From Henriciella sp. (lineage in GTDB: Bacteria; Pseudomonadota; Alphaproteobacteria; Caulobacterales; Hyphomonadaceae): DNA of 64,000 nucleotides. A model generated the notes under the pieces. That model had not been told where the DNA came from and did no database searches. It was given only the letters and a program-made list of their open reading frames with translations. The first letter of the stretch is position 1, and each line of letters opens with the position of its first letter. Shown here piece by piece: positions 5,798 through 53,371 of this stretch. Both the position numbers and the translations under genes were made by a program. Where the stretch lies: contig JABSQA010000001.1 of the NCBI GenBank assembly GCA_013213825.1, positions 33,017 through 97,016 on the forward strand, given 5' to 3'.

Positions 5798-6901
5798 TTA
5801 ATCAGGATTCGCCGTGATTTCGACCCGCTGTGCACGATCTCCGAACGCTTCGAATAAGAATTCCTCTGTCCCCGTGAGCCAGGCCTGTCCGCCAAGCTCG
5901 ATCAATTCATCGAACAATGCCGCACGGCGATCGCGATCTAAATGCGCCGCGGCTTCGTCCAGCAAGATCAGAGGGCTTGGGCCATTGCCATCGGCATTGA
6001 GCGCACGCGCGCTGGCCAGGATCAGTCCAATCAGCAGCGCTTTTTGTTGACCGGTAGACGCATCGCCTGCGGCCGCCCCTGTTGGTCGGTGGATGACGGA
6101 TAGATCGGTTCGATGCGGGCCAGACAGCGTTCGGCCAGCGGCTTGATCGCGATATCGGCCTTTGGCGAGCTGTTCGGCGATCAGGTCTTGCACATCAAAC
6201 AAGCTGGCATCCTCACTGGCCAGCTTTTCGGCGTCACCCTCCAGCGCTAAGTCACCTTTTGGGAAGAAGCCTTCTGGTCGGTCATTGATCGCGTCTTGGA
6301 GGGCAATCAGAATGCGGGCGCGATTGCTTGCAATGATCGCCCCGGCTTCCGCCATCCGACCTTCAATCGCATCGGCCCATGCCGGGTCGACGCGTCCGCG
6401 TTCGAGCAAAGCGTTGCGCTCGCGCATCGCCTTTTCATACCGATTGGAGACGCTGCCATGGCTGGGAATATGTGCCATCACTTGGCGGTCGAAAAAGCGT
6501 CGCCGCTCGCTGGCGCCGCCGCGAAACACGCTATCCATAGCTGGCGTTAGCCAGACAATGCGAATGAGGTCCGCGAGATCTGTCGCGGTGGCGGGTGCCC
6601 CATCCAGGCGAACGACCCGCTTATTTCCATTACCGGTCGAGTCGAGCCCGACGCCCAATTTGCGATCCTCATCGAGCGTCGCGGAGATGGTCCAACCGGA
6701 GGTGGCGTCATGTCTGGTCATCTCGGGCAAAGCCGCTGCGCGCAGGCCGCGCCCTGGGCCGAGCTGGCTAATCGCTTCCAGGACATTGGTTTTGCCAGCG
6801 CCATTGCTGCCCCAGAGACAGACAGGTCTGGTATCGAGTTTTAAATCCAAACTCGCATGGCTGCGAAAATCCGTAAGGCGAAGGCGAGTAAGGGCGGTCA
6901 C
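5798..6901 (-). CDS. recF: DNA replication/repair protein RecF
   Basis: GSNGAGKTNVLEAI Walker A, GPHRTDL, STGQQKALL, LLDEAAAHLD; start overlaps the dnaN stop. Confidence 0.95.
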   Translation of the reverse strand: MTALTRLRLTDFRSHASLDLKLDTRPVCLWGSNGAGKTNVLEAISQLGPGRGLRAAALPEMTRHDATSGWTISATLDEDRKLGVGLDSTGNGNKRVVRLDGAPATATDLADLIRIVWLTPAMDSVFRGGASERRRFFDRQVMAHIPSHGSVSNRYEKAMRERNALLERGRVDPAWADAIEGRMAEAGAIIASNRARILIALQDAINDRPEGFFPKGDLALEGDAEKLASEDASLFDVQDLIAEQLAKGRYRDQAAGRTLSGPHRTDLSVIHRPTGAAAGDASTGQQKALLIGLILASARALNADGNGPSPLILLDEAAAHLDRDRRAALFDELIELGGQAWLTGTEEFLFEAFGDRAQRVEITANPD

Positions 6902-8019
6902 TAGACCCGTAATGGCATCAGCACATATTGCGCGCTCTCATCACCGGGATCGAGCACAAGGGCAGGGGAAGCAGGATCATTGAATAGGAAGCGCGCATCT
7001 TCCGCTTCAATTTGAGCAGTCACATCCAGCAAATATTTTGCGTTAAAGCCAATATCCATTTCGTCGGCTTGGTAATCACACTCAATCTCTTCGTGGCCCT
7101 GACCGGTCTCAGCACTGTTTACCGCTAATGTTAGACGGCCTTCGGCGAGTGACAATTTCACGGATCGTGAACGTTCGGCCGAAACCGTTGCGACGCGATC
7201 AACGGCCGCTTCAAACAGCTTATTGTCGATGATCATGGCTTTGGCATTCCCTTTCGGGATAACCCGCGCATAGTCCGGGAAGGATCCGTCAATCAATTTT
7301 GAGGTCAGCTGCGCTCTGCCTGACTTGAACACGACCTTCGTGTCCGAGACCGAAACCGAGACATCGCCATCTTCACTGTCGATCAGACGGCGCACTTCGC
7401 CGACCGCTTTGCGGGGAACGATGACGCCTTCCAAGGTCTCGGCGCCGCTCGGGGCATCCACTTCAGACAGCGCCAGGCGGTGTCCATCGGTTGCCACTGT
7501 GCGGAGCTTTTTGCCCGCATCTGTATCGGCGGTGTGTAAGTAGACCCCGTTCAAATAGTAGCGTGTCTCTTCGGTTGAAATCGCGAAACGAGTCTTATCA
7601 ATCAAACGGCGCAAATCAGCGGCTTCCATCTCAAACTCGCTAGCATCCTCATCGGGCACCATGGTCTGGAAGTCGCCCGCTGGCAGGGTTGGAAGCGAGA
7701 ATTTTGAACGGCCAGAGCGAATGGCGAGCTGACGGTTTTCACCATTCAGTTCCAACTCAATGTCGGCGCCCGCAGGCAGCTTTCGAACCACGTCAAACAA
7801 AGTGCCAGCGGGGGCGGTCACGGCGCCATCGGCGTCGATTTTCGCATCCGCATGATCAACGGCCTCGATATCAAGGTCCGTCGCCGTGAAGCGAACCGCG
7901 CCATCGGCCGCTTCGATCAGAATATTCGACAGAATGGGAATCGTGTTGCGACGTTCCACGACATTTTGGACATGTCCGAGCGCATTCAACAGCGCGCCGC
8001 GTTCGATCGTCAATTTCAT
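6901..8019 (-). CDS. dnaN: DNA polymerase III beta sliding clamp
   Basis: RRNTIPILSN, ETRYYLNGV, VATDGHRL, SKLIDGSFPDY, IGFNAKYL, YVLMPLRV. Confidence 0.98.
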   Translation of the reverse strand: MKLTIERGALLNALGHVQNVVERRNTIPILSNILIEAADGAVRFTATDLDIEAVDHADAKIDADGAVTAPAGTLFDVVRKLPAGADIELELNGENRQLAIRSGRSKFSLPTLPAGDFQTMVPDEDASEFEMEAADLRRLIDKTRFAISTEETRYYLNGVYLHTADTDAGKKLRTVATDGHRLALSEVDAPSGAETLEGVIVPRKAVGEVRRLIDSEDGDVSVSVSDTKVVFKSGRAQLTSKLIDGSFPDYARVIPKGNAKAMIIDNKLFEAAVDRVATVSAERSRSVKLSLAEGRLTLAVNSAETGQGHEEIECDYQADEMDIGFNAKYLLDVTAQIEAEDARFLFNDPASPALVLDPGDESAQYVLMPLRV

Positions 8020-8081
8020 ATTATTTTCCCTTTGCCGGTCATCCGGTCTCGCCCATTCTCAGTCCGTTTTCAAACGAATCA

Positions 8082-8105
8082 GCCCGCTCCTTTTCGGGAG
8101 CGGGC
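8082..8105. other. Strong GC hairpin between dnaA and dnaN
   Basis: GCCCGCTCC/GGAGCGGGC 9-bp stem; no good U tract on the coding (minus) strand. Confidence 0.5.
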
Positions 8106-8156
8106 CGCTAAAGTCACGAATTCCGCGTGAAATGCAAGTCTTTGTCAGACTTGGGC

Positions 8157-8165
8157 TGTGGATCA
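8157..8165 (-). promoter_or_regulatory. DnaA box (TGATCCACA, Caulobacter G-box type) overlapping the dnaA stop codon
   Basis: + strand TGTGGATCA; its reverse complement begins with the dnaA TGA. Confidence 0.45.
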
Positions 8166-9629
8166 GGCCTGATCGTGGCCCGCCAACCGATCGAACACAG
8201 CGTTTTTGACCCGCTCAATCTCTTCGCTCATGTCGCGGTCACCTTTATCCAGTGCCTTCTTAATCTTGCGATAGGCGTGCAGCACGGTGGTGTGGTCTTT
8301 TTTCTTATAGGCCGTCGCGATTTGCGGGAAGGACTTGTCCGTCATCACGCGCGACAAATACATGGCGACTTGCCGCGGATGACAGATCGTGCGGACTTTA
8401 CTGGCGCTTTCAATGTCGCTCTTGGAAATCCGATACAGATCCATACAGGTGCGCTTAATGTCATCCAGCGAAGGCGTACGCGGCTCTCCAGCAATCCGGC
8501 GAATGACCGTTTCGAGCATGTCTGGCGTTGGGGCGAGCTCGCCATAGCCTGTCTCAAGCTGCAAGCTCCAGAGCACGCCACACAATTCACGCCCGGCGCC
8601 GCGCACAGTCGCGACGATGCGCTCAATCATGGCTTCTGTCAGGATGAAATTTGGGGTGTCTTTCGCGATCAAGTCCACATGCCGACGAATGATCGCTTTG
8701 CGCATCTCATTGTCTGGCATGGCCACTTCGACAGATGCCGCGCCTTTGATTTCGCCGACCAGTTCTTTTGACAGGCCGACCATATCGCCTGGTGCAGCAT
8801 CGGCGGTGATGATGACATGTCCGCCCATAGACGTCACCGCGCGCAAGGCGCCGAAGAAGGCTTTGTCAGTTTTTGCTTTGCCTGCGATCCAGTGCAGGTC
8901 ATCAATCATCAATAGGTCATTCTTTTTGACATAAGCCTGCAGCGCGCTTGTATCCCCAGCTCGGGAGTCGCTGACAAATCGAGTCATAAACTCTTCGGCA
9001 GAAATATAAGCCAATCGGCGACTGTCATTGCGCAGGGCGGCTTCCGCCTCGATCGCTTTAAGAATGTGCGTTTTGCCAGTGCCTGGCTGACCATAAATCA
9101 CAATCACGCCGGCGGGGATGGGGGCCCCACTGGCGACGCGCTTTCCAAGTCCAACCGCGCGCGCATTCGATGGCCCGGCAACCAGAGTTGCGAATGTCAT
9201 GGAATGATCGAGATTGAGCGCCGCGTAATCCGGCTCACTGTCATCCAGTTCGACCGTGGATTGACCCGACTCACTCAGCCATGGGTCACCGACCATATCG
9301 CGCACATCTGAAGGGACGCGCGACCATAGCTCAAACTTCAGGCGTCGCTTTTTCGGATCAAGCTTCTGCCACGCTTGTTGAAGTGGGCGTGAAAAATCCG
9401 TAGAGACGCGATCCAGCGTCAACTGATCCGGTGCCGCGATCACGATCGAATTATTAATCTCGGCGACAAAGCGAATTGCTGTCAGCCATTGTTGTGAGTT
9501 ATCGGGTTTCGCTTCGGCTTCAACCGCGCTGACAGATTGCGACCAAAGCGTCTTCGCACCAAACTGATTGTCCGTTGCTTTTGCCTCGGTTGTAGCTTTC
9601 TGCCCTTCAACCCCATACGTCAGCCCCAT
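8163..9629 (-). CDS. dnaA: Chromosomal replication initiator DnaA (divergent)
   Basis: Walker A GQPGTGKTH, Walker B LLMIDD, sensor II GRELCG, domain IV HPRQVAMYL and DHTTVLHA; position between rpsT and dnaN; start ATG 9629 (GTG 9686 is an alternative). Confidence 0.9.
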   Translation of the reverse strand: MGLTYGVEGQKATTEAKATDNQFGAKTLWSQSVSAVEAEAKPDNSQQWLTAIRFVAEINNSIVIAAPDQLTLDRVSTDFSRPLQQAWQKLDPKKRRLKFELWSRVPSDVRDMVGDPWLSESGQSTVELDDSEPDYAALNLDHSMTFATLVAGPSNARAVGLGKRVASGAPIPAGVIVIYGQPGTGKTHILKAIEAEAALRNDSRRLAYISAEEFMTRFVSDSRAGDTSALQAYVKKNDLLMIDDLHWIAGKAKTDKAFFGALRAVTSMGGHVIITADAAPGDMVGLSKELVGEIKGAASVEVAMPDNEMRKAIIRRHVDLIAKDTPNFILTEAMIERIVATVRGAGRELCGVLWSLQLETGYGELAPTPDMLETVIRRIAGEPRTPSLDDIKRTCMDLYRISKSDIESASKVRTICHPRQVAMYLSRVMTDKSFPQIATAYKKKDHTTVLHAYRKIKKALDKGDRDMSEEIERVKNAVFDRLAGHDQA

Positions 9630-10009
9630 AAGATGCACCTTTCTTATTCTTGCGTTTTCTTCATCTTGGCGACCAACGGAAAACACACACGCCTCTATGA
9701 TTGACCCGGTAAGGCCTACCCCAAAATTACGCTGTACACAGAGGACAATCCGTCGATGAAGATAGTTAATCAGGAACAGATTTTGGTTGCAACAGAAGAA
9801 ACTTTACTTTGCCCGCACAAGGCCTGCTTGACTCCTGATTAGCCCTTGAAGATTCACGTGAAAATAAACTCAAAAAGTTACACTTGACAGGTTTGAGTGT
9901 TCCGACTGTTTGCCGTATTCAACCTTTGTTCTGTCAACGGCAAATTCGTCCATTCTCTGTGGATTTTTGTGCTTTGATACACTCCGTGTATTTCGAGCAC
10001 ATATACGCG

Positions 10010-10077: not shown

Positions 10078-10341
10078 TTAGCTCATCGCCTTCACGCGCG
10101 CAGAAAGGCGAGACACTTTGCGTGCGGATGTGTTCTTATGAATGACGCCTTTTCCGGCGGCGCGCATGATTTCTGGCTGTGCAGCTTTCAGCGCTTCGCT
10201 GGCGGCAGACTTGTCGCCAGCCTCGATCGCTTCTTCAACTTTGCGGACATAAGTGCGCATGCGCGAGCGTCGGGCCTTATTCACTTCGGTGCGGGTCGCA
10301 ATCTTGCGCACCATCTTTTTGGCTGATTTCGTGTTCGCCAT
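10078..10341 (-). CDS. rpsT: 30S ribosomal protein S20
   Basis: [13 protein letters not shown]...[10 protein letters not shown]...[15 protein letters not shown]. Confidence 0.98.
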
Positions 10342-10447: not shown

Positions 10448-10456
10448 TTATCCACA
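10448..10456 (+). promoter_or_regulatory. Perfect consensus DnaA box TTATCCACA next to two GANTC sites
   Basis: TTATCCACA at 10448-10456; GACTC 10443-10447; GATTC 10434-10438. Confidence 0.55.
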
Positions 10457-36080: not shown

Positions 36081-37616
36081 TTAGCGCCGTCTTCCGCCGA
36101 GAATGCCGCGTAAGACATAATCTGTGACCCGGCGCGAAATCGTCCGCGTGGCGGTGTTGATTGCACGCTCTGTCGGGGTCATACGCGTCGAGCGTCTGCG
36201 GGTGGAGCGCGTCTTCTTTTCCCGCTCTTTCTTCTTCTCGAGCTCGCGCTGGGCGCGCTCTTCTTCTTTGGCGAGTTTTTCAGCTGCTTCGGCAGCTTCT
36301 TCTTCGCGCTTTAAAAGGATCTCATAGGCCGACTCACGGTCGATCGCCTCATCATAGATCCCGAGAACCGGACTGTTTTCCATCTCGGCTTTGCGTTCGG
36401 CCTCAGTGGCCGGGCCGAGCCGCGAACTTGGGGGACGAATGAGCGTCCGCTGAACCACACCGGGCGCCCCTTTTTCGTCCAAAGTCGATACCAATGCTTC
36501 GCCCACGCCCAGATCGGTGATGACCTCTTTCGCATCAAAAGCCGGGTTTTCACGGAACGATTCCGCGGCGGCTTTCACGCCTTTGCGTTCGGCCGGCGTG
36601 TAGGCGCGCAAGGCATGCTGAATGCGATTGCCGAGTTGGGCGAGGACACTGTCCGGCAAGTCTCGCGGGTTCTGCGTCACAAAGAAGACGCCAATGCCTT
36701 TTGACCGGATCAAGCGAACCACTTGTTCGATCTTTTCCAGCAAGGCCCGCGGCGCGTCATTGAAGAGCAAATGCGCCTCGTCGAAGAAAAAGACCATTTT
36801 TGGTTTCTCAGGGTCACCGACTTCCGGAAGCTCTTCAAACAGTTGCGAAAGCAGCCACAGCAAAAACGTCGAATACAATCGCGGACTGTTAATCAGCGTG
36901 GTGGAGTCGAGCACATTGACGATGCCGCGACCATCGCGCGTTGTACGCATAAAGTCTTTGAGATTGAGCGCAGGCTCGCCGAAGAATTGCTCAGCGCCTT
37001 CACGTTCTAGGACCAATAGACGTCTTTGAATGGCGCCGAGAGAGGCCGTCGCGACATTGCCATATTCGCGGCTAATGGCGTTGCGCACCTCTTTGTCGCC
37101 CATATGATTGAGCAGCTTGCGCAAATCCTTCATGTCGAGCAGCAGCATGCCTTCATCATCGGCATATTCAAACGCAACAGTGAGGACGCCTTCTTGGGTC
37201 TCCGACAAATCCATCAAGCGCGATAAGAGCAAAGGTCCCATATCGGAAATCGTCGTACGGACAGGGTGACCTTTCTCGCCAAACACATCCCAGAACACAG
37301 TTGGCGTCGCGCCATAATCATAGTCTTCGAAGCCGATCTTCTCAGCGCGTGAGATCAGCTTCGGATGCAGCTTGTGATCCGGGCTTCCAGAAACGCAAAT
37401 CCCAGACAGATCGCCCTTCACGTCGGCGCAAAACACCGGAACGCCTTCACTCGCAAAGCCTTCCGCGAGAATTTGTAATGTGACCGTTTTGCCCGTTCCA
37501 GTCGCCCCAGCGACGATGCCGTGCCGGTTGGCCCGATTAAGCAGCAGAGTCTGGGCATCATTGGGCGTGCCCTCACCATCCATATCCGCCCCACCGATAA
37601 AGATCCTGTCGCCCAT
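36081..37616 (-). CDS. DUF853/YjgR HerA-like ATPase
   Basis: ANRHGIVAGATGTGKT, TTISDMGPLLL, FFFDEAHLLF, IRSKGIG, LGNRIQHALRAYTP. Confidence 0.92.
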   Translation of the reverse strand: MGDRIFIGGADMDGEGTPNDAQTLLLNRANRHGIVAGATGTGKTVTLQILAEGFASEGVPVFCADVKGDLSGICVSGSPDHKLHPKLISRAEKIGFEDYDYGATPTVFWDVFGEKGHPVRTTISDMGPLLLSRLMDLSETQEGVLTVAFEYADDEGMLLLDMKDLRKLLNHMGDKEVRNAISREYGNVATASLGAIQRRLLVLEREGAEQFFGEPALNLKDFMRTTRDGRGIVNVLDSTTLINSPRLYSTFLLWLLSQLFEELPEVGDPEKPKMVFFFDEAHLLFNDAPRALLEKIEQVVRLIRSKGIGVFFVTQNPRDLPDSVLAQLGNRIQHALRAYTPAERKGVKAAAESFRENPAFDAKEVITDLGVGEALVSTLDEKGAPGVVQRTLIRPPSSRLGPATEAERKAEMENSPVLGIYDEAIDRESAYEILLKREEEAAEAAEKLAKEEERAQRELEKKKEREKKTRSTRRRSTRMTPTERAINTATRTISRRVTDYVLRGILGGRRR

Positions 37617-37717: not shown

Positions 37718-39568
37718 CTAGGCGACGGCTTCCAATTCTGGTGTTGCCGAAACCAATTCTGGTTTGCCGAGCCAATATCCCTGGATCTCAGTCGCGCCGA
37801 GTTCGGCGACCCGCCTGGCGAGGCTTTCTTGTTCAATGCCTTCCACGCAGGATTCAAGCCCCAATTTGCGTGCCATTTGAAGGGCGATGTCGAGGATCGA
37901 TTCCATGCGTTCATTGCAATCGGCTTCGACCACCAAGCTGCGATCAATCTTGAGCTTGTCCAAAGGCAGTTTTTCCACAATCGATAAGGATGAATAGCCT
38001 TTGCCAAAATCGTCCAAAGCGACGGTCATGCCATGCCGGCGCGCTTCGTTGAGCACTCTGACATTTTGCTCGACATTTCGAAATGCGACTTCCTCGGTAA
38101 TCTCTAGAACCAGATTCTCGGCGGGGAAATTATGCGCCTTTAAGCCGCGTCTCAATCGCCAGATAAAGTCCGTGGCGACAATTTGGGCGGGTGAAATATT
38201 GATGGAAAGGAACTTACCACTCAGATCCGCCGTCGAGAGCGCTTCTTCGAGCGTGACGCGCAGCAATTGGTTGAGCAGGCCGAGTTTTTCCGCGATGGGG
38301 ATGAATTGATCTGGTCGTGGATCCGTTCTTAACCCGCTGTCGACCCAACGCGATAGCAGCTCATATCCCTTGATTTCATGGCTCTGTGCACATGCGATCG
38401 GTTGTAGGGCAGCCCGAATATTCCCTGACTCTAAGGCTTGCTTGAAGGCCACTTCGAGTGCGGCAGTGGCCATTGTCGCATCGTCTTCTTGGACGTCATA
38501 TCTCGCCCAACCCATTTTTGTAATTTTCGCCCGCCTCATCGAAATTTCCGCCGCTGGCAGAAGTAAAGAAGCGCAGTCGACATCACGTTTCGCCTGCACA
38601 TAGCCAATCGACGTGCCAAAGGACAGAACATGTTCATTGAAAACAACGTCTTCCGTGATCATGGAGTGAATGCGCTTAACAGCGCGGTCGGCTTTTTTTC
38701 CGTTGATTCCACTATTTAGCACGAGGGCGAATTCATCACCGCCAATCCTGGCGGCAAATTGGACATCTTCATCAGATGAGAGACGGTCTGCAATTTCGTA
38801 GAGCAGTGCGTCGCCCGCGGCATGTCCAAACTGATCATTGATCGGCTTAAACCGATCCAAATCCATGAAGGCTAAGGTGAATTCGTCTGTGTCATTCCAG
38901 GTCCGCTCAAGCACATCGGACAAGGCACGACGATTGATCAGTCCCGTCAGGTGATCGGTCATAGACAGCACCCGCTTTTCTTCGATCACCCGCATGAACT
39001 TCTTGTCGTTCTTGTCGCGGATGCGTGCGGTTACGGCGGACATGAACAAGACCACGCAAGACATAGCCGCAAAGAGGACGCCCAAAATGACAATGTTTTG
39101 GTCTGTGAACTGGTCAGAGAAATATTCGTGCGCATAACGGGTCGATACAAAATATACCAATCCGAACTGGGCAGGTATGAGCATGAAGATCATTCGGTTT
39201 TTCATCAGAGACACGATGATAAGCGGAATGAACAGCATGAGCGCCAATTGATGCTGCTTGTAGGCGCCCGCCAATACTTCCCAGGTACCGATGCCCCAGA
39301 CATTTGCATAGGTCGCCAATAGCGCGATCGATAGCACGCGCTTCACGGCGAAATTTAAGTAACAGCAAATGCCAACAATGGTGAGGGTAACAATCCCTAT
39401 CAGCCCGCAGACCCAGACATAGAAAGACTCTTCGCCAAGCGCGACAATGATCGCGATGCAGAACATTGTGATCGGGATGCCAGCAAAGCACGCCGTATAG
39501 CCGTACAAGCGATGTCGATCGCTGACGTCTTCTTCGGTTTCCTGCGCATGCCAACCAGCATCATTCAT
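37718..39568 (-). CDS. Membrane GGDEF-EAL c-di-GMP cyclase/phosphodiesterase
   Basis: TM region; DLDRFKPIND, RIGGDEF; ELLSRW, LEITE, DDFGKGYSSL, KIDRS, EGIE, QGY. Confidence 0.92.
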   Translation of the reverse strand: MNDAGWHAQETEEDVSDRHRLYGYTACFAGIPITMFCIAIIVALGEESFYVWVCGLIGIVTLTIVGICCYLNFAVKRVLSIALLATYANVWGIGTWEVLAGAYKQHQLALMLFIPLIIVSLMKNRMIFMLIPAQFGLVYFVSTRYAHEYFSDQFTDQNIVILGVLFAAMSCVVLFMSAVTARIRDKNDKKFMRVIEEKRVLSMTDHLTGLINRRALSDVLERTWNDTDEFTLAFMDLDRFKPINDQFGHAAGDALLYEIADRLSSDEDVQFAARIGGDEFALVLNSGINGKKADRAVKRIHSMITEDVVFNEHVLSFGTSIGYVQAKRDVDCASLLLPAAEISMRRAKITKMGWARYDVQEDDATMATAALEVAFKQALESGNIRAALQPIACAQSHEIKGYELLSRWVDSGLRTDPRPDQFIPIAEKLGLLNQLLRVTLEEALSTADLSGKFLSINISPAQIVATDFIWRLRRGLKAHNFPAENLVLEITEEVAFRNVEQNVRVLNEARRHGMTVALDDFGKGYSSLSIVEKLPLDKLKIDRSLVVEADCNERMESILDIALQMARKLGLESCVEGIEQESLARRVAELGATEIQGYWLGKPELVSATPELEAVA

Positions 39569-40426: not shown

Positions 40427-41353
40427 ATGATGAAGACATATTGGATGTTAGGCGCCAGCGCCGTGATTCTGGCGGCCTGTTCAGGCGGCAATGAAGCGCC
40501 GACAGAGACCGTCGAAGCCGAAACGCCGCCGGTTGAAGTGGTCGAATCTGGCCCAATCACGCTGGCTGATGCAGTTGCTGGCGATTGGCGCAGCGATGAG
40601 GAGAAGGCCCGCGATGGTTGGCGTAATCCTGCAGAAACACTCGAATTCTTCGAAGTTTCAGCCAGTGATACAGTTGTCGAAATTTGGCCTGGTGGTGGTA
40701 GGTACACGAATGTCCTGGCGCCTTATCTTGCGTCTGGCGATGGTCAACTGATTGCCGCGGTATGGGATGTAAACGTCTTTGAAGGCGAGCGTCTGGCCCG
40801 GATCGAGCAGCGCATCGATGATTTCAAAGCGGTTTATGAAGCCGATGCGGATCTATTCGGCACACTCGAATATAGCGCTTTCTCAGCCCAATCTGGCCCA
40901 CTGGCGGCGCCTGAATCTGTGGATGCTGTGCTTACCTTCCGCAATGTCCACAATTGGATGGGCGGGGATTACTCTCCGAAGTTCTTTGATGATGCCTTTG
41001 CGGCATTGAAACCTGGCGGTGTGCTGGGTGTCGTGGAGCACCGTTTGCCGTCAAGCGCCGAGCAAGACCCACGTGGGGCTACGGGCTATGTTCACGAAGA
41101 CTTCGTGAAAGCCATGGCCGCCGCGTCAGGCTTTGAATTTGTGGCCGCCAGCGAAATCAACGCCAATCCCGCCGACAGCGCTGACCATCCATTCGGCGTT
41201 TGGACCTTGCCGCCGGTCAGCCGCACCACGGATCGTGAAGGCAATGCGCCGGAAGACTTTGACGCTGCCCGTTATGTAGAGATCGGAGAATCGGATCGGA
41301 TGACGCTGAAATTTGTCAAACCCGCCGAAACCGCATCAGAACCGGTCGAGTAA
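40427..41353 (+). CDS. Predicted methyltransferase-like lipoprotein (COG4798-like)
   Basis: Lipobox LAAC; RNPAETLEFF, EIWPGGG, LTFRNVHNW, LKPGG, SEINANP, GESDRMTLKF. Confidence 0.85.
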   Translation: MMKTYWMLGASAVILAACSGGNEAPTETVEAETPPVEVVESGPITLADAVAGDWRSDEEKARDGWRNPAETLEFFEVSASDTVVEIWPGGGRYTNVLAPYLASGDGQLIAAVWDVNVFEGERLARIEQRIDDFKAVYEADADLFGTLEYSAFSAQSGPLAAPESVDAVLTFRNVHNWMGGDYSPKFFDDAFAALKPGGVLGVVEHRLPSSAEQDPRGATGYVHEDFVKAMAAASGFEFVAASEINANPADSADHPFGVWTLPPVSRTTDREGNAPEDFDAARYVEIGESDRMTLKFVKPAETASEPVE

Positions 41354-43975
41354 GCGCTCGAGATACTCGCGCTCGTCTTCATCGACGGCTTCGTCATAGC
41401 GACGGCGCAATTCATCTAGGATGTCCTTGGCACGCTGGCGTTCAGCTTCGTCAGGGACATCCACGCTATTACTATCATCAATCGCGCCCGTTTGCCCGCG
41501 TCCAAACGGGTCCGCGCCCGCTTGTCCGCCGGTTTGTTGATCACCGAGCCGATCGGCACGGGCTTCATCGAGATCCTCTGCCAATCCTTCTGCGAGCTCC
41601 CGCAATTGGCGTGTCGCTTGTTCTTGATTTCGAATAGCGCGGCCTTGATTACCGTCCTCGAGGGCGTTACCAGCGCGGCGCTGAGAGCGCTCGATCGCCT
41701 CAAGCGTGTCTTCATCCAGACCGCCGCCACCTTCGCCTTCACCCTCTTCGCCACCACCCAATTGGTTTTCGGCGAGTTCTTCTATGCGATCTGCGAGCGA
41801 TCTCTGGCGTTCGCTCAGTGAGCGTCCATCTTCGCCTTCCATCCAATCAGGGACGTCGCCTAATCCCTCACCGATTTGCGCATCGCCTTGCTCACCCGGT
41901 TGATCCTGACCCGCTTGTTGATCGCCAGACTGCCCCCGTTCACCGCGTTGTTCTGCGAGCGTTTCGTCATTCAATTCGCGCTGTTCGCGCAGCAAGTCAG
42001 ACAGTTCTCGCATGGTTTCGGTCATTTCCCGCTCTTCTTCGGGCAGGTCTTCGTCACTCTCACCTTGTTCGCCTGGCATGCCAGGGAAACCCTCACCTGA
42101 GCCAGAGCCTTGCTGGAATTCCAGATTCTCCAACATATTGGTAATGTCAGCGAGCAATTGGCGTGCTTGATCCGTGGCGCCGGTTTCGGTCAAATCTTCC
42201 AGCGCATCGAGCATGTCGGAAAAGCCTTGGCCCCCGAGCCCGCTGCCACCCGGTCCTTCTGTACTGTCGCGATTGTCTGGCGGCGCGTCGAGCCCATTAG
42301 CCAGCGCTTCGGCCATTTTGGCGGCGATGTAACGCTGCGCGGCGTCTTTAAACGCGTCCATTAAGCGCCGAATTTCTTCTTCGCTGGCGCCATCTCGCAA
42401 GGCATCTTCAAGCGCCTTCTTGGCGGCCATCAGCGCCGCATATGCGTCTGCCGCTGAGCCATATTCCGCACGTAAGGCGAGGGACCAGAGCAGGGGTTCG
42501 GTGGATTTCGCTTCATCTGTCGAGATAGAGGCTTCCAGCGCATAGCGCGCCGTCTCCAAGCCAGAATAAACCAGGACGTCTCGGAAATAGCGGGGGGCCT
42601 CATAAGTCACCGCTTCCAGCATCACCGCGCCGCGTTGCACCCCTGGAGGCGCTTGTTGCAAACGCTGAGTCGCCGAGACGTAATAGGCATCGGCGCGCGT
42701 GGAATCGAGGGCTGGTTCAGCTTCTGAATAGGGATTGTCTTCCCGTAAGACCGTTACCCGAACATCTTGAATGGCTTTGGCGATGGGCTGTAAGAGCAGC
42801 TTCTCGGGGAGTTTGAACTCATACGGTTCGCTGTAGCCGACCTGACCTGCGCCATCGGTGGCTTTCAAACGCACTTCAACCCGGGCGCCAGCCCAGCGAT
42901 TACGCGTTAGGTCGAGTTTTGCATCTTCTTCGGCCTCGCGCGGGTTAATGCCCCCGAGTTCAACGCCAACCAGGTCAGGCTCGCGCGCTTCAGCGACAGG
43001 TGCGATGGTCAGCTCGAGTTTCGCGACGCCATAATCGTCGCTGGCTTTCCAGCTAAACTCAGTCCGATCGCCCGCGCCGAGCACAGGCATTTCGACGAAT
43101 TCGACTTCTGGAGGTGAATCGGGTGAGGCCAATACGGTCCATGCTTTGCGTTCTCCCCACCAGCGTACAGAGACCGTGCTATCGGCAGTAATCGTAGCGG
43201 TCGTTTCAAAGGCGCCATCCGGCGTGGCCTCGAACCGCTTGCTTTGCCGCCCATCTGCGCTTCGCACGCGCAATCTTGGCGCGGAAGGCGCTTGCGCGCG
43301 TAGCGTCATCACCGATCCCGCCGGAACGCGAATCTCGGATTGATCATCATTGATAAAGATGGGCGCGCGTCCGGTGTGTTCAGGCGGGGCAATCCAAGCT
43401 TCGATGCGAACGGTCTCAGCGCCAAACAAACTGCCATAATCCGGGTCGAGTGCGCTGGCGAAACGCGATGAAGCTTGGGTCCAATTCAATGCCAACGCTG
43501 CGAGCAGCAAAACCGGCAACGCAAACCGCAAATAAAGCGGGTCGATTCGTTTCCAGGTCTCACCAAAGTCCGGCACGCTGAGCCGCCTCACTTCGTCGGT
43601 CAGACGCGTTTCATGGGCGTGCCACAAGGTTACCGCATCGCGCTCAGGTCGAGCGGGACGGTCGGCTAGAGTTGAAAGAGGACGCAATTCCGATTGCGCA
43701 TCCAGCTCTGAAATCGCTTCGTTTCGGGCCGGTGGGCGGTAGCGGTTCAGACCCCGCCAAACCGCAATCCCGCCTCCCAAAAAGGCGATCAAGGTCGCCA
43801 GAGCGGCCAATTGCGCGGGCGCCTGTTCAAAAACGCCCAGGAATACCGCAATCAGAAATACGCTGAGCAACGTGACGAACGGCCACCAAGCGCTCCAAAG
43901 CGCGATTTGCCGAAGTCTCGAAAAGGTTCGGTCAATCAGGCTTTTGGTGCCAGGAATGCGGTTCAGGTCAGCCAA
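41336..43975 (-). CDS. DUF4175/TIGR02302 family membrane protein
   Basis: Two N-terminal TMs, IEAWIAPPEHTG, ALRDGASEEEI, Q/G-rich tail, DPFGR, YLERLLDRF; follows lysA. Confidence 0.88.
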   Translation of the reverse strand: MADLNRIPGTKSLIDRTFSRLRQIALWSAWWPFVTLLSVFLIAVFLGVFEQAPAQLAALATLIAFLGGGIAVWRGLNRYRPPARNEAISELDAQSELRPLSTLADRPARPERDAVTLWHAHETRLTDEVRRLSVPDFGETWKRIDPLYLRFALPVLLLAALALNWTQASSRFASALDPDYGSLFGAETVRIEAWIAPPEHTGRAPIFINDDQSEIRVPAGSVMTLRAQAPSAPRLRVRSADGRQSKRFEATPDGAFETTATITADSTVSVRWWGERKAWTVLASPDSPPEVEFVEMPVLGAGDRTEFSWKASDDYGVAKLELTIAPVAEAREPDLVGVELGGINPREAEEDAKLDLTRNRWAGARVEVRLKATDGAGQVGYSEPYEFKLPEKLLLQPIAKAIQDVRVTVLREDNPYSEAEPALDSTRADAYYVSATQRLQQAPPGVQRGAVMLEAVTYEAPRYFRDVLVYSGLETARYALEASISTDEAKSTEPLLWSLALRAEYGSAADAYAALMAAKKALEDALRDGASEEEIRRLMDAFKDAAQRYIAAKMAEALANGLDAPPDNRDSTEGPGGSGLGGQGFSDMLDALEDLTETGATDQARQLLADITNMLENLEFQQGSGSGEGFPGMPGEQGESDEDLPEEEREMTETMRELSDLLREQRELNDETLAEQRGERGQSGDQQAGQDQPGEQGDAQIGEGLGDVPDWMEGEDGRSLSERQRSLADRIEELAENQLGGGEEGEGEGGGGLDEDTLEAIERSQRRAGNALEDGNQGRAIRNQEQATRQLRELAEGLAEDLDEARADRLGDQQTGGQAGADPFGRGQTGAIDDSNSVDVPDEAERQRAKDILDELRRRYDEAVDEDEREYLERLLDRF

Positions 43976-49408: not shown

Positions 49409-51421
49409 TTACATCCGAGTGCGGCGCACGTCGCGGCCCGAGCCAACTTTTGGTCCGCCATAGCGCGGCGCGCCCGATGCGGCGCCACTGGTTGCACTTC
49501 CTGGGCGTACGGTTTCACGCGTCAGGGGCGGCACGGCCATGGCTTCAGGTTTTGGGGCCTCGCCATTCTCGTCAAATAGGCTCGCGAGCTGTTCGGTCAT
49601 CGCGCCCCCCAATTGTTCAGCATCGACAATGGTGACAGCGCGTTTGTAGTAACGCGTGACATCGTGGCCGATGCCAATGGCGATCAGCTCGACCGGGCTG
49701 CGGGTCTCAATCTCTTCAATGACTTGGCGCAAGTGGCGTTCCAGATAATTGCCCACATTCACCGACAGAGTGGAATCATCCACGGGTGCGCCGTCAGAAA
49801 TCACCATCATGATTTTGCGCTGTTCCGACCGGCCAAGCAGGCGGTCATGCGCCCAAAGCAAGGCTTCACCGTCAATATTCTCTTTCAACAAGCCTTCGCG
49901 CATCATCAGACCAAGATTACGGCGCGCACGACGCCACGGGGCATCGGCAGATTTATAGATGATGTGCCGCAAATCATTTAGGCGACCTGGACCCGCCGGT
50001 TTGCCTGCTTTGACCCAATCCTCACGGCTGAGCCCGCCTTTCCAGGCTTTCGTCGTAAAGCCAAGAATTTCAACTTTCACCCCGCACCGTTCAAGCGTCC
50101 GCGCGAGGATATCGGCGCACAAGGCTGCGACCATGATCGGACGTCCCCGCATGGACCCAGAATTGTCGAGCAGAAGGGTCACAACCGTATCGCGGAAATT
50201 GCTGTCGTCTTCTTGCTTAAAGCTCAGAGGCGCCGTCGGATCCGTAATGACGCGGGTCAATCGAGCCGTATCCAATACGCCTTCCTCAAGGTCGAAAGAC
50301 CAAGACCGGTTTTGCTGGGCCATCAAACGACGCTGGAGTTTATTGGCGAGTTTTGAGACAGCGCCTTGCAAGCTCTCCAACTGATGGTCGAGATAGGCGC
50401 GAAGGCGGACCAGTTCTTCCGGGTCACAGAGATCTACCGCTTGGGCGACCTCATCATTGTCCTTGGTAAAGGCCTTGTACTGGAAGCGATCTGTTTCATC
50501 GCCATCGCGGAAATTGGGCCGCAAGGGTTTGGTGCCATCATCGGTGTCTTCGGGATTGTCTTCGGCGTCCATGTCGACATCAGCGTCGATTGAGACATTG
50601 GTCTCTTCGCCTTCCATGTCTTCTGTTTCGCCAGCCTCGACTTCCTCCATCGTGGCGCCTTGGGTCTCTTCGCCCGACTCGCCATCATCCGAAGAATTCT
50701 CTTGATTATTTTGTTCGGCTTCGTCTTCAGAAGCTTCATCCTGCTCGCCTTGGTCGTCGGCCACTTCGTCGCCTTTGGTAAAGGTGCGGACGATTTGCTG
50801 AACGGTTTCAGCGAATGCGGCTTGGTCGTCGATTTGCGAAATGAGCTGATCTCGCAACTCTTCAATCACGCCATCTAATGGCCGTTGACCGTCGGCCCCG
50901 ACCTCTTGGCGCCAGAGATTGGCAAAGCCAGCGGCGGGTTTTGGCAGGTCTCGCCCCGTCAGGCGTTCACGCAATAAAAACTCGATCGCAGGCGCGAGCG
51001 GGGCATTTGTACGGTCGTCTATGCGGCTATATCCGGCCTTCTCGCATCGTAATGCCAGCGCGGCGTCGAGATTGTCGGCTGTGCCTTGCATCGCGCGCGC
51101 GCCGATGCTCTCAATGCGGGCGCGTTCAGCGGCTTCATAGACTTGCCGTCCGACTTCGCTGTCGGGTCGAAATTTGGCGTGTGCGATCGGGTCATGGTGG
51201 GCCATGCGCAAGGCTGTTGCATCTGCATCGCCGCGGGCTTGAGCCGCTTGTTCAGGGCTCAAATCTCTAGGCGGCGGGGGCAGGACGATCCGTTCAGCTT
51301 CAGCGCGCGGGCCATCGCCGGAATAGGACACTTCGACGTCGCGCGTTTGGCTCATCGCCTTGGCGGTCGTAGCCAAGGCTTGTTTGAACAATTCATAGGG
51401 CGCATCGTCGGTTTTAGACAT
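49409..51421 (-). CDS. cobT: CobT (cobaltochelatase-type VWA subunit)
   Basis: [58 protein letters not shown]. Confidence 0.95.
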
Positions 51422-51500
51422 TCCGATGACTTAGCGCGCGTGCTGAAGTTTGCGAAGCCTAAAAGCACCGCAAAGCCGAGTTGTCGCGGGGTGAAATCGG

Positions 51501-52343
51501 TTAAGAGCTTTGTTCGCGCTGCGGCAGGAAACGTTCGCGCGCCAATCGCAGCCATTCGGTAAACGGAAACAATAAGAGCTTGCCGATATTTTCCCCCGGA
51601 TTTCCGGCAAATCCCGTGGGAAGCCCCTTCGCAGAGTGCGGGGAGTAATAAGTGCCGAATGCGAGATCGATAAATGGGAAAAAGAGCGCAAAATTCTTAT
51701 TGTGGGCCTCAGCTTGATCGACATGGTGCCAACGATGAAATTGTGGGCTCGCCAGCACGTGGCGTAGAGGTCCGTGATCCCAGTCCAGTCGCGAATGGAC
51801 GTAATATTGATGGGCTTCGCGCGCCAATCCAAGGAAGACAACGTCTGAAATTCCTAGGCCGCAAAAAAAGGCCACTGCGGCAGTGATGGGAAACACGACC
51901 ACCCATTCCAAAATATGCGCCCGATTTGCTGATAGGAAATGCAGATCTGTATCTGAATGGTGCACGGCGTGCAGCGGCCACGACCAGGCATTCGAGTGCA
52001 TCCATCGATGCAGCGCGTAATTCGTTAGATCAAACAATAAAAGCGCGATGAATGCACGAACCAGCCAGGGCGCATCGTTCCAAACCAGTGGTGAGAGGTG
52101 CGGCAAAGACTGAAGCAGATGAAGCGCATAAGCGGTTGCCGCGATCGGCAAAGTAATGGCGAGAGAATTCAGCGTAATGAGCCAGACATTGACCCAACCG
52201 CTCTTTTTCAGCGTTTCGTCCCAATGCAATTGTTTTCGGCCCGTCGCAAAAAACATCAGCACCGTGATCAGCCCGAAGAAGACGAACACAAATTGGAGCC
52301 GAAAGCTAAGGTTTGCTAACGCAGATTGAAGATAGTCCCACAT
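51501..52343 (-). CDS. Sterol desaturase/fatty acid hydroxylase family protein
   Basis: His boxes LHRWMH, HAVHH, YVHS, HRWHH; KNFA. Confidence 0.88.
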   Translation of the reverse strand: MWDYLQSALANLSFRLQFVFVFFGLITVLMFFATGRKQLHWDETLKKSGWVNVWLITLNSLAITLPIAATAYALHLLQSLPHLSPLVWNDAPWLVRAFIALLLFDLTNYALHRWMHSNAWSWPLHAVHHSDTDLHFLSANRAHILEWVVVFPITAAVAFFCGLGISDVVFLGLAREAHQYYVHSRLDWDHGPLRHVLASPQFHRWHHVDQAEAHNKNFALFFPFIDLAFGTYYSPHSAKGLPTGFAGNPGENIGKLLLFPFTEWLRLARERFLPQREQSS

Positions 52344-52387
52344 GAGCGCAGTTTAGGCTGCGCTGCTGAAAACACCCTTAAACAATC

Positions 52388-53371
52388 CTAGGCAACTTTT
52401 ACCATTAGGGCGCTTTCTGGTAATTCTTCGGCGAAGCAACGCTGATACATTTCAGCGACCAGCGGACGTTCGAGCTCATCACACTTGTTCAGGAATGTCA
52501 TCCGGAACGCGTGGCCGAGATCTTTAAAAATGGCGTAGTTTTCCGCCCAAGTGATCACCGTCCGTGGACTCATCACAGTCGACAAATCACCATTCATGAA
52601 CGCGTTCCGCGTCAAATCGGCCAAGGTGACCATGCGGCTCAGCGTTTCGGTATCAACATCGCCCGCTTTGGTCGCCACGATTTCAACTTCAGCGTCATGC
52701 TCGAGATAGTTCAGCGTGGTGACAATGCTCCACCGGTCCATTTGGCCTTGGTTGAGCTGCTGGGTGCCGTGATACAATCCAGTCGTATCGCCAAGTCCAA
52801 CCGTATTGGTTGTGGCGAAGAGACGGAAATACGGATTCGGCTCGATCACACGGTTTTGGTCGAGTAAGGTCAGTTTACCGCTGGCTTCAAGCACACGCTG
52901 GATGACGAACATTACATCCGGACGACCGGCATCATATTCATCGAACGTGATGGCAACCGGGCGCTGAAGCGCCCATGGCAGAATGCCTTCACGAAATTCC
53001 GTGACTTGGGCGCCGTCTTTGAGAACAATTGCGTCTTTTCCGACCATATCACTCCGTGAGACATGACTGTCCAAATTGACCCGGATCATCGGCCAATTCA
53101 GGCGCGCCGCGATTTGCTCAATATGTGTCGACTTCCCCGTGCCGTGATAGCCTTGGACCATGACCCGGCGATTATGTTCGAACCCGGCCAAAAGCGCGAT
53201 CGTCGTTTGCGGGTCAAATCGATAGGCTTCATCGATGGCCGGAACATATTCCGTCCGTTCCTTAAATCCCCGCACAACCATATCCGTGTCGAGGCCAAAC
53301 ACCTCGCGAACGTCGATCGTCTCGGTTGGCTCCATGCCTAAGAGGCTGTCGTTATCGCTCATCACAGTCAT
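52388..53371 (-). CDS. cobS: CobS (cobaltochelatase-type MoxR AAA+ subunit)
   Basis: [42 protein letters not shown]. Confidence 0.96.

Follow-up and report, generated by a model that had tools for sequence, protein, structure and literature searches.

In a 64,000-nucleotide stretch of DNA from Henriciella sp. (contig JABSQA010000001.1 of GenBank assembly GCA_013213825.1, positions 33,017 to 97,016 of the forward strand; hereafter the window), the dnaA gene encodes a chromosomal replication initiator in which both arginines of Box VII, including the one equivalent to the arginine finger R285 of Escherichia coli DnaA, are replaced by glutamate. To our knowledge, the R285 finger is regarded as a universal device for the recognition of ATP-DnaA protomers and for origin opening. 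We found that, as far as the aligned sequences tell, the finger arginine has been lost not only in the lineage of the window but in a wider clade that includes Caulobacter, Robiginitomaculum, Hyphomonas, and Henriciella. We consider it fairly probable (about 0.6) that the window DnaA is still an initiator, that its protomers associate head-to-tail through a re-wired interface, and that an Hda-type factor still inactivates it. A large lineage thus does without R285, including the tractable models Caulobacter crescentus and Hyphomonas neptunium, and the subclade of the window has gone furthest. Whether an ATP-dependent filament needs the Box VII finger, or can be rebuilt from another helix, thereby becomes directly testable.

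The gene and its Box VII were delimited as follows.

8163..9629, reverse strand: dnaA, divergent orthologous chromosomal replication initiator, 488 amino acids plus stop, read from an ATG

8745..8768, reverse strand: Box VII helix K288-E-L-V-G-E-I-K295, placed by HMMER and MAFFT alignments, clade statistics, and a model helix at 288-295

The reading frame of dnaA is intact. A longer open reading frame (ORF) with a GTG start reaches 9686 in frame and would add 19 residues (9630-9686); because the DnaA proteins of most relatives are 484-490 amino acids long, the ATG at 9629 was favored as the start, and one relative (P0001, 507 amino acids) was called from an upstream start. Box VII of the window protein reads LSKELVGEIKGA, which HMMER aligned to LEDRLRSRFEWG of Bacillus subtilis and VSDRLVSRFEGG of Aquifex, and under which MAFFT placed VEDRLKSRFGWG of E. 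coli DnaA (sequence from NC_000913). The two are in gapless register, anchored by the equal spacing of the sensor I aspartate and the proline that follows strand beta5: from D277 (E. coli D269) to P305 (E. coli P297) there are 28 residues in both proteins. E289 therefore stands at E. coli R281 (codon 8763-8765) and E293 at the finger R285 (codon 8751-8753), and the recomputed codons agree with the initial annotation, which had reported glutamate at both positions. By the same register, K288 corresponds to E. coli D280, V291 to K283, and K295 to G287. An AlphaFold2 model of the protein, built from a 35-sequence alignment (mean predicted local distance difference test, pLDDT, 83.4), has a helix at residues 288-295 (KELVGEIK) followed by a strand at 298-302; by helical periodicity, E. 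coli positions 280, 283, and 287 should lie on one face of this helix, and 281 and 285 on the adjacent face. Considering that canonical DnaA is acidic at position 280 (80% Glu or Asp), often basic at 283, and carries R281 and R285, the charge pattern of Box VII is inverted, from [ED]R..R.x to [KR]E..E.[KR], and the arginine hallmark of this motif is absent from the window protein. As aligned, its Box VII helix cannot put an arginine on the ATP of the neighboring protomer from position 281, 283, or 285, and we infer that the head-to-tail AAA+ contact cannot be canonical.

The unusual Box VII was maintained by selection. Our pooled alignment contained 333 DnaA proteins, of which 86 constituted the subclade of the window protein (full-length members 50-98% identical to it). 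Within this subclade, position 285 was Glu in 86/86 and position 281 was Glu in 81 (Gln in 4 and Thr in 1); position 280 was basic in 80 of the 86 (67 Lys and 13 Arg), position 287 was basic in all of them with free exchange (45 Lys and 41 Arg), and position 283 held a small residue, Val, Ala, or Ser, in place of the canonical Lys or Arg. Compared with the dnaA of a 90%-identical relative (L082), the ratio of nonsynonymous to synonymous substitution rates (dN/dS) was 0.039 over the whole gene and 0.021 within domain III. In the 41 codons surrounding Box VII (270-310), the two genes differed by 18 synonymous and 0 nonsynonymous changes, which indicates that strong purifying selection acts on the divergent segment. 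The charge-inverted Box VII is a selected trait, and this dnaA, from a marine Henriciella-like member of the Hyphomonadaceae, shows no decay and is best explained as the orthologous gene rather than as a paralog.

The taxonomic extent of the loss was then found to be wide. Our first homologue search gave 120 clusters, in all of which position 285 was Glu, including proteins named Henriciella and Hyphomonas; the DnaA proteins bearing these two names retained R281 and R283 ('QRMRGELLG', 'QRMRSEIKG'). Among the 50%-identity representatives of an exhaustive search, Glu or Asp occupied position 285 in most full-length matches down to about 240 bits, and further lineages had His, Gln, Leu, Tyr, Phe, Ile, or Val. 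Robiginitomaculum DnaA proteins had His, and a search seeded with a Caulobacter sp. locus returned 120 clusters with His at 285 in 120/120. Four of these Caulobacter clusters (P0500, P0510, P0514, and P0517) start with MTMKGGVASQDFS and carry the arginine of sensor II at residue 357 or 358; one of them, 490 amino acids long with this arginine at 357, matches the published C. crescentus numbering. Box VII of the C. crescentus-type protein reads EMDAHLRSHLSAGLV, with H298 and H302 at the two Box VII arginine positions and R300 between them. As a control, among the matches listed for 80 broadly sampled bacterial dnaA loci, 76 had R281 and R285, spanning Rhizobiales, Rhodobacterales, Sphingomonadales, Beta- and Gammaproteobacteria, Firmicutes, and others, while three Caulobacteraceae loci (L011, L020, and L040) read 'DARLRSHL', that is, His at 285. 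All 177 canonical sequences in the sample carried Arg at position 285. In a rough neighbor-joining tree, all finger-less DnaA proteins fell into one nested alphaproteobacterial clade with the subclade of the window at its tip.

Alignment with E. coli, Caulobacter, and Hyphomonadaceae DnaA thus confirmed the absence of the finger arginine from the window protein, with His in Caulobacter and Glu in Hyphomonas and Henriciella at this position. The initial annotation had discussed the loss for one lineage; it is shared by all Hyphomonas/Henriciella-type proteins, by Robiginitomaculum, and by the 120 of 120 Caulobacter clusters. A full-text literature search, whose incomplete coverage makes it no proof of novelty, found no statement of Box VII arginine loss in Caulobacter or Hyphomonadaceae DnaA. 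The C. crescentus protein is essential and regulated through its ATP site, and its R357A mutant (equivalent to E. coli R334A) is hyperactive and does not substitute for the wild-type protein (PMC3193534). Since Caulobacter DnaA is finger-less and nevertheless an essential initiator, loss of the Box VII arginines is compatible with an initiator role; and because this validated protein also lacks them, we treated these arginines as a near-universal hallmark rather than as a criterion of orthology.

When clade-specific changes of charge were sought, a single position proved to follow position 285 exactly, namely E. coli position 255 in helix alpha3 (residues 252-267 in the AlphaFold2 model), which precedes the Box VII helix.

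8841..8843, reverse strand: R263 (E. coli N255), in helix alpha3 beside the Box VII helix; possible relocated finger or partner of E293 in a salt bridge, proposed from covariation with a predicted contact

The pairing of positions 255 and 285 was surveyed over about 570 DnaA proteins. Arg or Lys stood at 255 in 131/131 proteins with Glu or Asp at 285 but in only 2 of 177 with Arg at 285. In the proteins with R285, Asn255 was found in 137/177 and in 79/97, with Glu or Asp in some of the others, and Asn255 without R285 occurred in two cases only. Caulobacter proteins with H285 had Thr or Ala at 255 (120/120), and proteins with Tyr or Leu at 285 had Ile or Cys (with Tyr) or Ala (with Leu). We infer that positions 255 and 285 are a structurally coupled pair that was charge-swapped to R263-E293 in the Hyphomonas/Henriciella branch. 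The side chain of R263 may sit near the place of the former finger, and the pairing suggests that the canonical Asn255 positions the arginine finger. The initial annotation had raised the possibility that another Arg or Lys occupies the finger position. None does in the sequence register, but a conserved basic residue at 280 and at 287 and an invariant Arg at 255, which covaries with Glu285, had been overlooked; taken together, these residues keep a relocated finger a live possibility.

The remainder of the ATPase core was examined residue by residue, and the motifs that act on ATP in cis were all retained.

9069..9092, reverse strand: Walker A G180-QPGTGK-T187 (E. coli G172...K178 T179), kept, invariant in all groups

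8898..8903, reverse strand: Walker B D243 D244 (E. coli D235 D236), kept, from the residue table

8799..8801, reverse strand: sensor I D277 (E. coli D269), kept, with the next residue changed (E. coli R270 to A278), from the alignment

8589..8591, reverse strand: sensor II R347 (E. coli R334, C. crescentus R357), kept, invariant in all groups

Walker A (GxxGxGKT), the Walker B aspartates, the sensor I aspartate, and the sensor II arginine were all present and invariant in the clade, and E212 (E. coli E204) was retained as well. In contrast, several residues at positions of contact with the neighboring protomer or the unwound strand were changed.

8937..8939, reverse strand: Q231 at E. coli K223 (B. 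subtilis R202), Gln in 84/86 of the subclade versus Lys or Arg in 95% of canonical proteins

8859..8861, reverse strand: A257 at E. coli E249 (B. subtilis E228), Ala in 85/86 of the subclade versus Glu in 175/177 canonical proteins

8736..8738, reverse strand: A298 at E. coli L290, the changed AID-2 inter-protomer residue, Ala in 79 and Thr in 7 of the subclade versus Leu in 139/177 canonical proteins

L290 of E. coli is an inter-protomer residue of AID-2 (PMC5742627). In the cryo-electron microscopy structure of the B. subtilis unwinding complex, R202 and E228 hold the guanine of the DnaA-trio (PMC10721633). The K223 equivalent is retained in Henriciella, Hyphomonas, and Caulobacter, and the basic residue was lost in the subclade of the window only. 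Other subclade changes include R227 of AID-1 to Lys and E337 of the sensor II helix to Cys. The backbone and hydrophobic contacts to single-stranded DNA are kept or conservatively changed: V211 corresponds to V219, K243 to K251, and Ser/Thr246 to T254, while R245 became K253. Since these contacts are retained, recognition of the single strand is probably altered in its sequence preference rather than abolished. The motif recognized at the origin of this organism may differ from the 3'-GAT-5' trio, given Q231 and A257.

In domain IV, R419, P435, D445, H446, T447, T448, and H451 (E. coli R407, P423, D433, H434, T435, T436, and H439) were retained; the changes were the replacement of E. coli R399 by K411, a conservative one, and that of FGGR by YKKK, so that the signature and the base contacts are complete except for R399. 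The SDRYP motif reads ADAAP and DHTTVLH is kept. The residue table accordingly bears out what the initial annotation had listed here, namely DR as DA, GGR as KKK, Lys at R399, and intact Walker A and B, sensor II, and DHTTVLH. Two further covariations were considered and set aside. A salt bridge between E249 and R281 was rejected, as Henriciella has R281 together with A249, and a basic residue at 287 as a specific compensation for the loss of R281 was suggestive only, since it accounts for about 7 of the 9 seemingly independent losses (judged by eye) against a background of about 40%.

From these observations a stepwise remodeling may be proposed. R285 would have been lost in the larger clade, giving way to His in Caulobacter and Robiginitomaculum or to Glu in Hyphomonas and Henriciella; R281 and R283 would then have been lost as well in the subclade of the window, which would stand at the far end of the process. 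In the present protein, DnaA boxes would still be read through an almost canonical domain IV, ATP would be bound and hydrolyzed in cis by the retained Walker A and B motifs, E212, D277, and R347, and the single-stranded DNA backbone would still be contacted by V219, K251, and T254. E289 and E293 would occupy the face that usually bears the arginines, with K/R288 and K/R295 on the adjacent face, and R263 would pair with E293, supplying the guanidinium that senses the ATP of the neighbor or at least neutralizing the glutamate. ATP-regulated oligomerization and origin opening would thereby persist through the re-wired interface. That R263, held by E293, is itself a relocated trans-acting arginine, and that K/R288 and K/R295 form a basic stripe replacing R283, is a tentative proposal to which we give somewhat less than an even chance. 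We are more doubtful still, though without dismissing it, about the full evolutionary version, in which the whole lineage (Caulobacter, Robiginitomaculum, Hyphomonas, Henriciella, and relatives) initiates replication with a finger-less DnaA, the guanidinium moved to position 255 with Glu at the old finger site in Hyphomonas and Henriciella, and Box VII became fully charge-inverted in the subclade of the window. If true, a finger relocated to position 255 would give an AAA+ initiator a hitherto undescribed means of sensing the nucleotide of its neighbor, and the literature searched made no mention of it.

Comparison with known systems places the protein within a graded series. It shares with canonical DnaA (E. 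coli, B. subtilis, Aquifex aeolicus, and Thermotoga maritima) the four domains, the cis ATP motifs, the single-stranded DNA backbone residues, the base-reading residues of domain IV, the dnaA-dnaN-recF-gyrB neighborhood, and the fold of domain III; it differs from them in having Glu for R281 and R285, Val, Ala, or Ser for K/R283, Lys or Arg at 280 and 287, Arg for N255, Ala for L290, Lys for R227, Gln for K223, Ala for E249, Lys for R399, KKK for GGR, and Leu for F46. Caulobacter crescentus DnaA (CC_0008-type) likewise lacks R285, R281, and N255 and keeps the sensor II arginine, but it retains R283 (as R300), L290, K223, E249, and E337, has His, which is neutral or weakly basic, rather than Glu, and has neither Arg255 nor a basic residue at 280 or 287. 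Hyphomonas and Henriciella sensu stricto are closer, sharing E285 with R255, Lys for R399, Ala, Val, or Thr for L290, and Cys for E337, while they differ in keeping R281, R283, and K223, in a variable position 287 (Lys, Met, Leu, or Gln), and in a position 280 that is not basic. Hda and HdaA share the DnaA-type AAA+ domain, whereas the window protein also has domains I and IV.

The functional literature on E. coli bears on how much is lost with these residues. ATP-dependent assembly on low-affinity boxes, the intrinsic ATPase, and datA-dependent DnaA-ATP hydrolysis (DDAH) all require R285, whereas regulatory inactivation of DnaA (RIDA) requires neither this residue nor R281; the latter stabilizes oligomers, and DnaB loading, but not unwinding, depends on it (PMC5742627). 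Because RIDA is independent of the DnaA finger, switching off by an Hda-type factor is likely to persist in the window protein. An origin composed of high-affinity boxes rescues the otherwise lethal R285A mutant (Grimwade 2018, reviewed in PMC6727663). The statement of the initial annotation that the arginines are needed for assembly and unwinding therefore holds for the wild-type oriC of E. coli, and is bypassed on such an origin (PMC6727663). R285A on the synthetic oriC-allADP resembles the present case in that a finger-less DnaA can initiate if origin binding is independent of ATP-bridged cooperativity (PMC6727663); it differs in that the origin was engineered, while the change in the window is natural, has become fixed in a clade, and goes together with many further changes at the interface.

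The identity of the protein as DnaA was supported by its domains, which were assigned as follows.

9291..9557, reverse strand: domain I, residues ~25-113, DnaA_N at 22.5 bits and model secondary structure at pLDDT 74-90

9210..9290, reverse strand: domain II linker, residues ~114-140, with predicted disorder (pLDDT <50 at residues 119-140)

8490..9209, reverse strand: domain III AAA+ ATPase, residues ~141-380, from Pfam Bac_DnaA, Foldseek, and the dN/dS of 0.021

8166..8489, reverse strand: domain IV, DNA-binding, residues 381-488, from Bac_DnaA_C, the residue table, and the 1j1v alignment

Pfam matched Bac_DnaA over residues 140-294 (2.4e-31, 109.6 bits, cutoff 23) and Bac_DnaA_C (2.2e-22, 79.3 bits, cutoff 31.5), while DnaA_N was weak (9e-5) and just under its cutoff of 24.6; together with the AlphaFold2 model, these matches give the four-domain architecture of DnaA. 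Domain I is diverged, as the initial annotation had described, yet recognizable, with W29 (E. coli W6) kept and E. coli F46 replaced by L70. The closest solved structures by sequence were those of B. subtilis, Aquifex, and Thermotoga DnaA (HMMER), with E. coli domain IV (1j1v) at 5e-15, and Foldseek superposed the model on solved DnaA domain III with template modeling scores of 0.90 (2z4r) and 0.87 (8bv3). The Hda model TIGR03420 scored 56 bits (3.8e-15, cutoff 194.8) and the HdaA models 20-21 bits (cutoffs 297-300); these sub-cutoff scores, the presence of domains I and IV, and the dnaA locus set the protein apart from Hda and HdaA. The locus itself is canonical. In the window, dnaA lies beside recF, dnaN, rpsT, an enoyl-CoA hydratase gene, and mutS, and on the 3.40-Mb contig of L082 the order is mutS-ech-rpsT-dnaA-dnaN-(short-chain dehydrogenase)-recF-…-gyrB; the rpsT-dnaA-dnaN arrangement given in the initial annotation is thus borne out by the window ORFs and by synteny.

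Several points weigh against an initiator with a re-wired interface. The covariation of positions 255 and 285 stems from few independent evolutionary events, and glutamates directed toward the triphosphate of a neighbor would repel it unless neutralized. The determinants of the origin-opening filament, R281, R285, L290, and the counterparts of R202 and E228 of B. subtilis, were altered together, and such multiple changes could mean that filament-driven melting was weakened or lost rather than re-wired. The finding that there is no second DnaA- or Hda-like ORF, which itself favors orthology, extends over the searched 64-kb window only. Finally, the best NCBIfam model was the DnaA equivalog TIGR00362 (1e-89), and the score of 301.6 bits is below its curated cutoff of 343.9. 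This score falls along the series of relatives, from 507 in a sphingomonad through Caulobacter (458), Robiginitomaculum (446), Henriciella AS95 (325), and Hyphomonas (317) to 302 in the window protein, so that Caulobacter and Robiginitomaculum pass the cutoff and Hyphomonas, Henriciella AS95, and the window protein miss it.

Alternatively, the sensing of ATP in trans may have been abandoned, an explanation that we regard as unlikely although it keeps a substantial minority share of the probability. The protein would still be an initiator, its protomers assembling without a contact between finger and ATP, with the nucleotide state read in cis through sensor II and the posture of domains III and IV, and with inactivation of the HdaA type; origin architecture or accessory factors would offset the lost cooperativity, and E289/E293, R263, and K288/K295 would serve local packing without forming a new finger. 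The unrelated residues at 285 in related lineages (His, Tyr, Leu, Gln, Ile, Val, Phe, Glu, and Asp) look as if the need for Arg had vanished first. The viability of E. coli R285A on an origin of high-affinity boxes (PMC6727663) and the independence of RIDA from R281 and R285 (PMC5742627) also favor this explanation, as do the changes in L290 of AID-2 and in the trio-capturing residues. However, the invariance of E285 across 131 sequences, the association of R255 with E285, and the constant Lys or Arg at 287 amount to more constraint than one would expect packing alone to require, and the strong purifying selection on the cis ATPase and single-stranded DNA backbone residues suggests that an ATP-dependent assembly binding single-stranded DNA is in use. 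The non-canonical oligomer chemistry that the initial annotation had offered as one of its inferences appears, on sequence grounds, to be the reading favored by the evidence.

It is very unlikely that the window DnaA no longer opens the origin and acts mainly as a transcription factor binding DnaA boxes or as an origin marker, with initiation left to another protein or to a second DnaA. The combined loss of R281, R285, L290, and both guanine-capturing residues of the DnaA-trio, the TIGR00362 score under the cutoff, and the name 'DnaA/Hda family protein' given by NCBI to relatives could be read in this way. Yet the dnaA-dnaN-recF-gyrB locus is canonical, the ATPase and single-stranded DNA backbone motifs are kept with a dN/dS of 0.02, the window holds no second DnaA copy, and the nearest homologues run through Henriciella and Hyphomonas to Caulobacter as a graded series that ends in a proven essential initiator (PMC3193534). 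The synteny, the sharing of the trait by the nearest homologues, and the lack of another copy in the window likewise speak against the role of regulator or paralog that the initial annotation had entertained. That the Box VII segment is a sequencing or assembly error, which had also been allowed for, or that dnaA is a pseudogene, can be practically discounted, as nothing was found in its favor and the frame is intact, the same Box VII recurs in 86 independently assembled relatives, and the differences from L082 in this segment are exclusively synonymous (18 against 0).

The low TIGR00362 scores have a practical side. Since DnaA proteins of this clade fall under the cutoff, they carry other names in public records, such as 'DnaA/Hda family protein', 'AAA family ATPase', 'ATP-binding protein', and 'DnaA ATPase domain-containing protein' (e.g., P0002, P0013, P0014, P0042, P0082, and P0087). 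Automated pipelines may therefore report genomes of the clade as being without dnaA.

The surroundings of dnaA contain the following genes and sites.

6901..8019, reverse strand: dnaN (beta clamp), directly downstream of dnaA; an ORF whose L082 equivalent matches DNA_pol3_beta

5798..6901, reverse strand: recF; an ORF whose L082 equivalent matches SMC_N

10078..10341, reverse strand: rpsT (ribosomal protein S20), upstream of dnaA; an ORF whose L082 equivalent matches Ribosomal_S20p

10448..10456, forward strand: DnaA box TTATCCACA, identical to the consensus, upstream of rpsT-dnaA, the sole exact match in the window

8157..8165, reverse strand: near-consensus DnaA box TGATCCACA with one mismatch, overlapping the dnaA stop ahead of dnaN, which could be due to chance

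8080..8107, reverse strand: GC-rich hairpin of 11 pairs, terminator- or attenuator-like, in the 143-bp dnaA-dnaN spacer, from a consensus scan

The window genes dnaN and recF abut, sharing base 6901, while L082 has a short-chain dehydrogenase gene between them (L082 12738-13667). The boxes TTATCCACA and TGATCCACA are possible autoregulatory sites; consensus DnaA-box matches in the window (11 found versus 7.9 expected) were not above chance. The hairpin is followed by a weak T tract, and the count of such sites in the region was not above that in shuffled sequences. The native replication origin was not found in the window and probably lies outside it. GC skew was uninformative on the origin at the scale of the window, and no hemE or other origin-marker gene was present among the 30 window ORFs scanned with Pfam (about 13 ORFs were left out). 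A scan of the whole window against Rfam gave no match, including none to a cobalamin riboswitch; at 49409-53371 on the reverse strand, a gene for a fatty-acid hydroxylase lies between CobT and CobS-like (AAA_5) genes. Three further reverse-strand genes, 26-34 kb from dnaA and without evident link to the DnaA finding, encode a HerA-like ATPase (PF05872, 745 bits; 36081-37616), a GGDEF-EAL protein (37718-39568), and a large DUF4175 protein (41336-43975).

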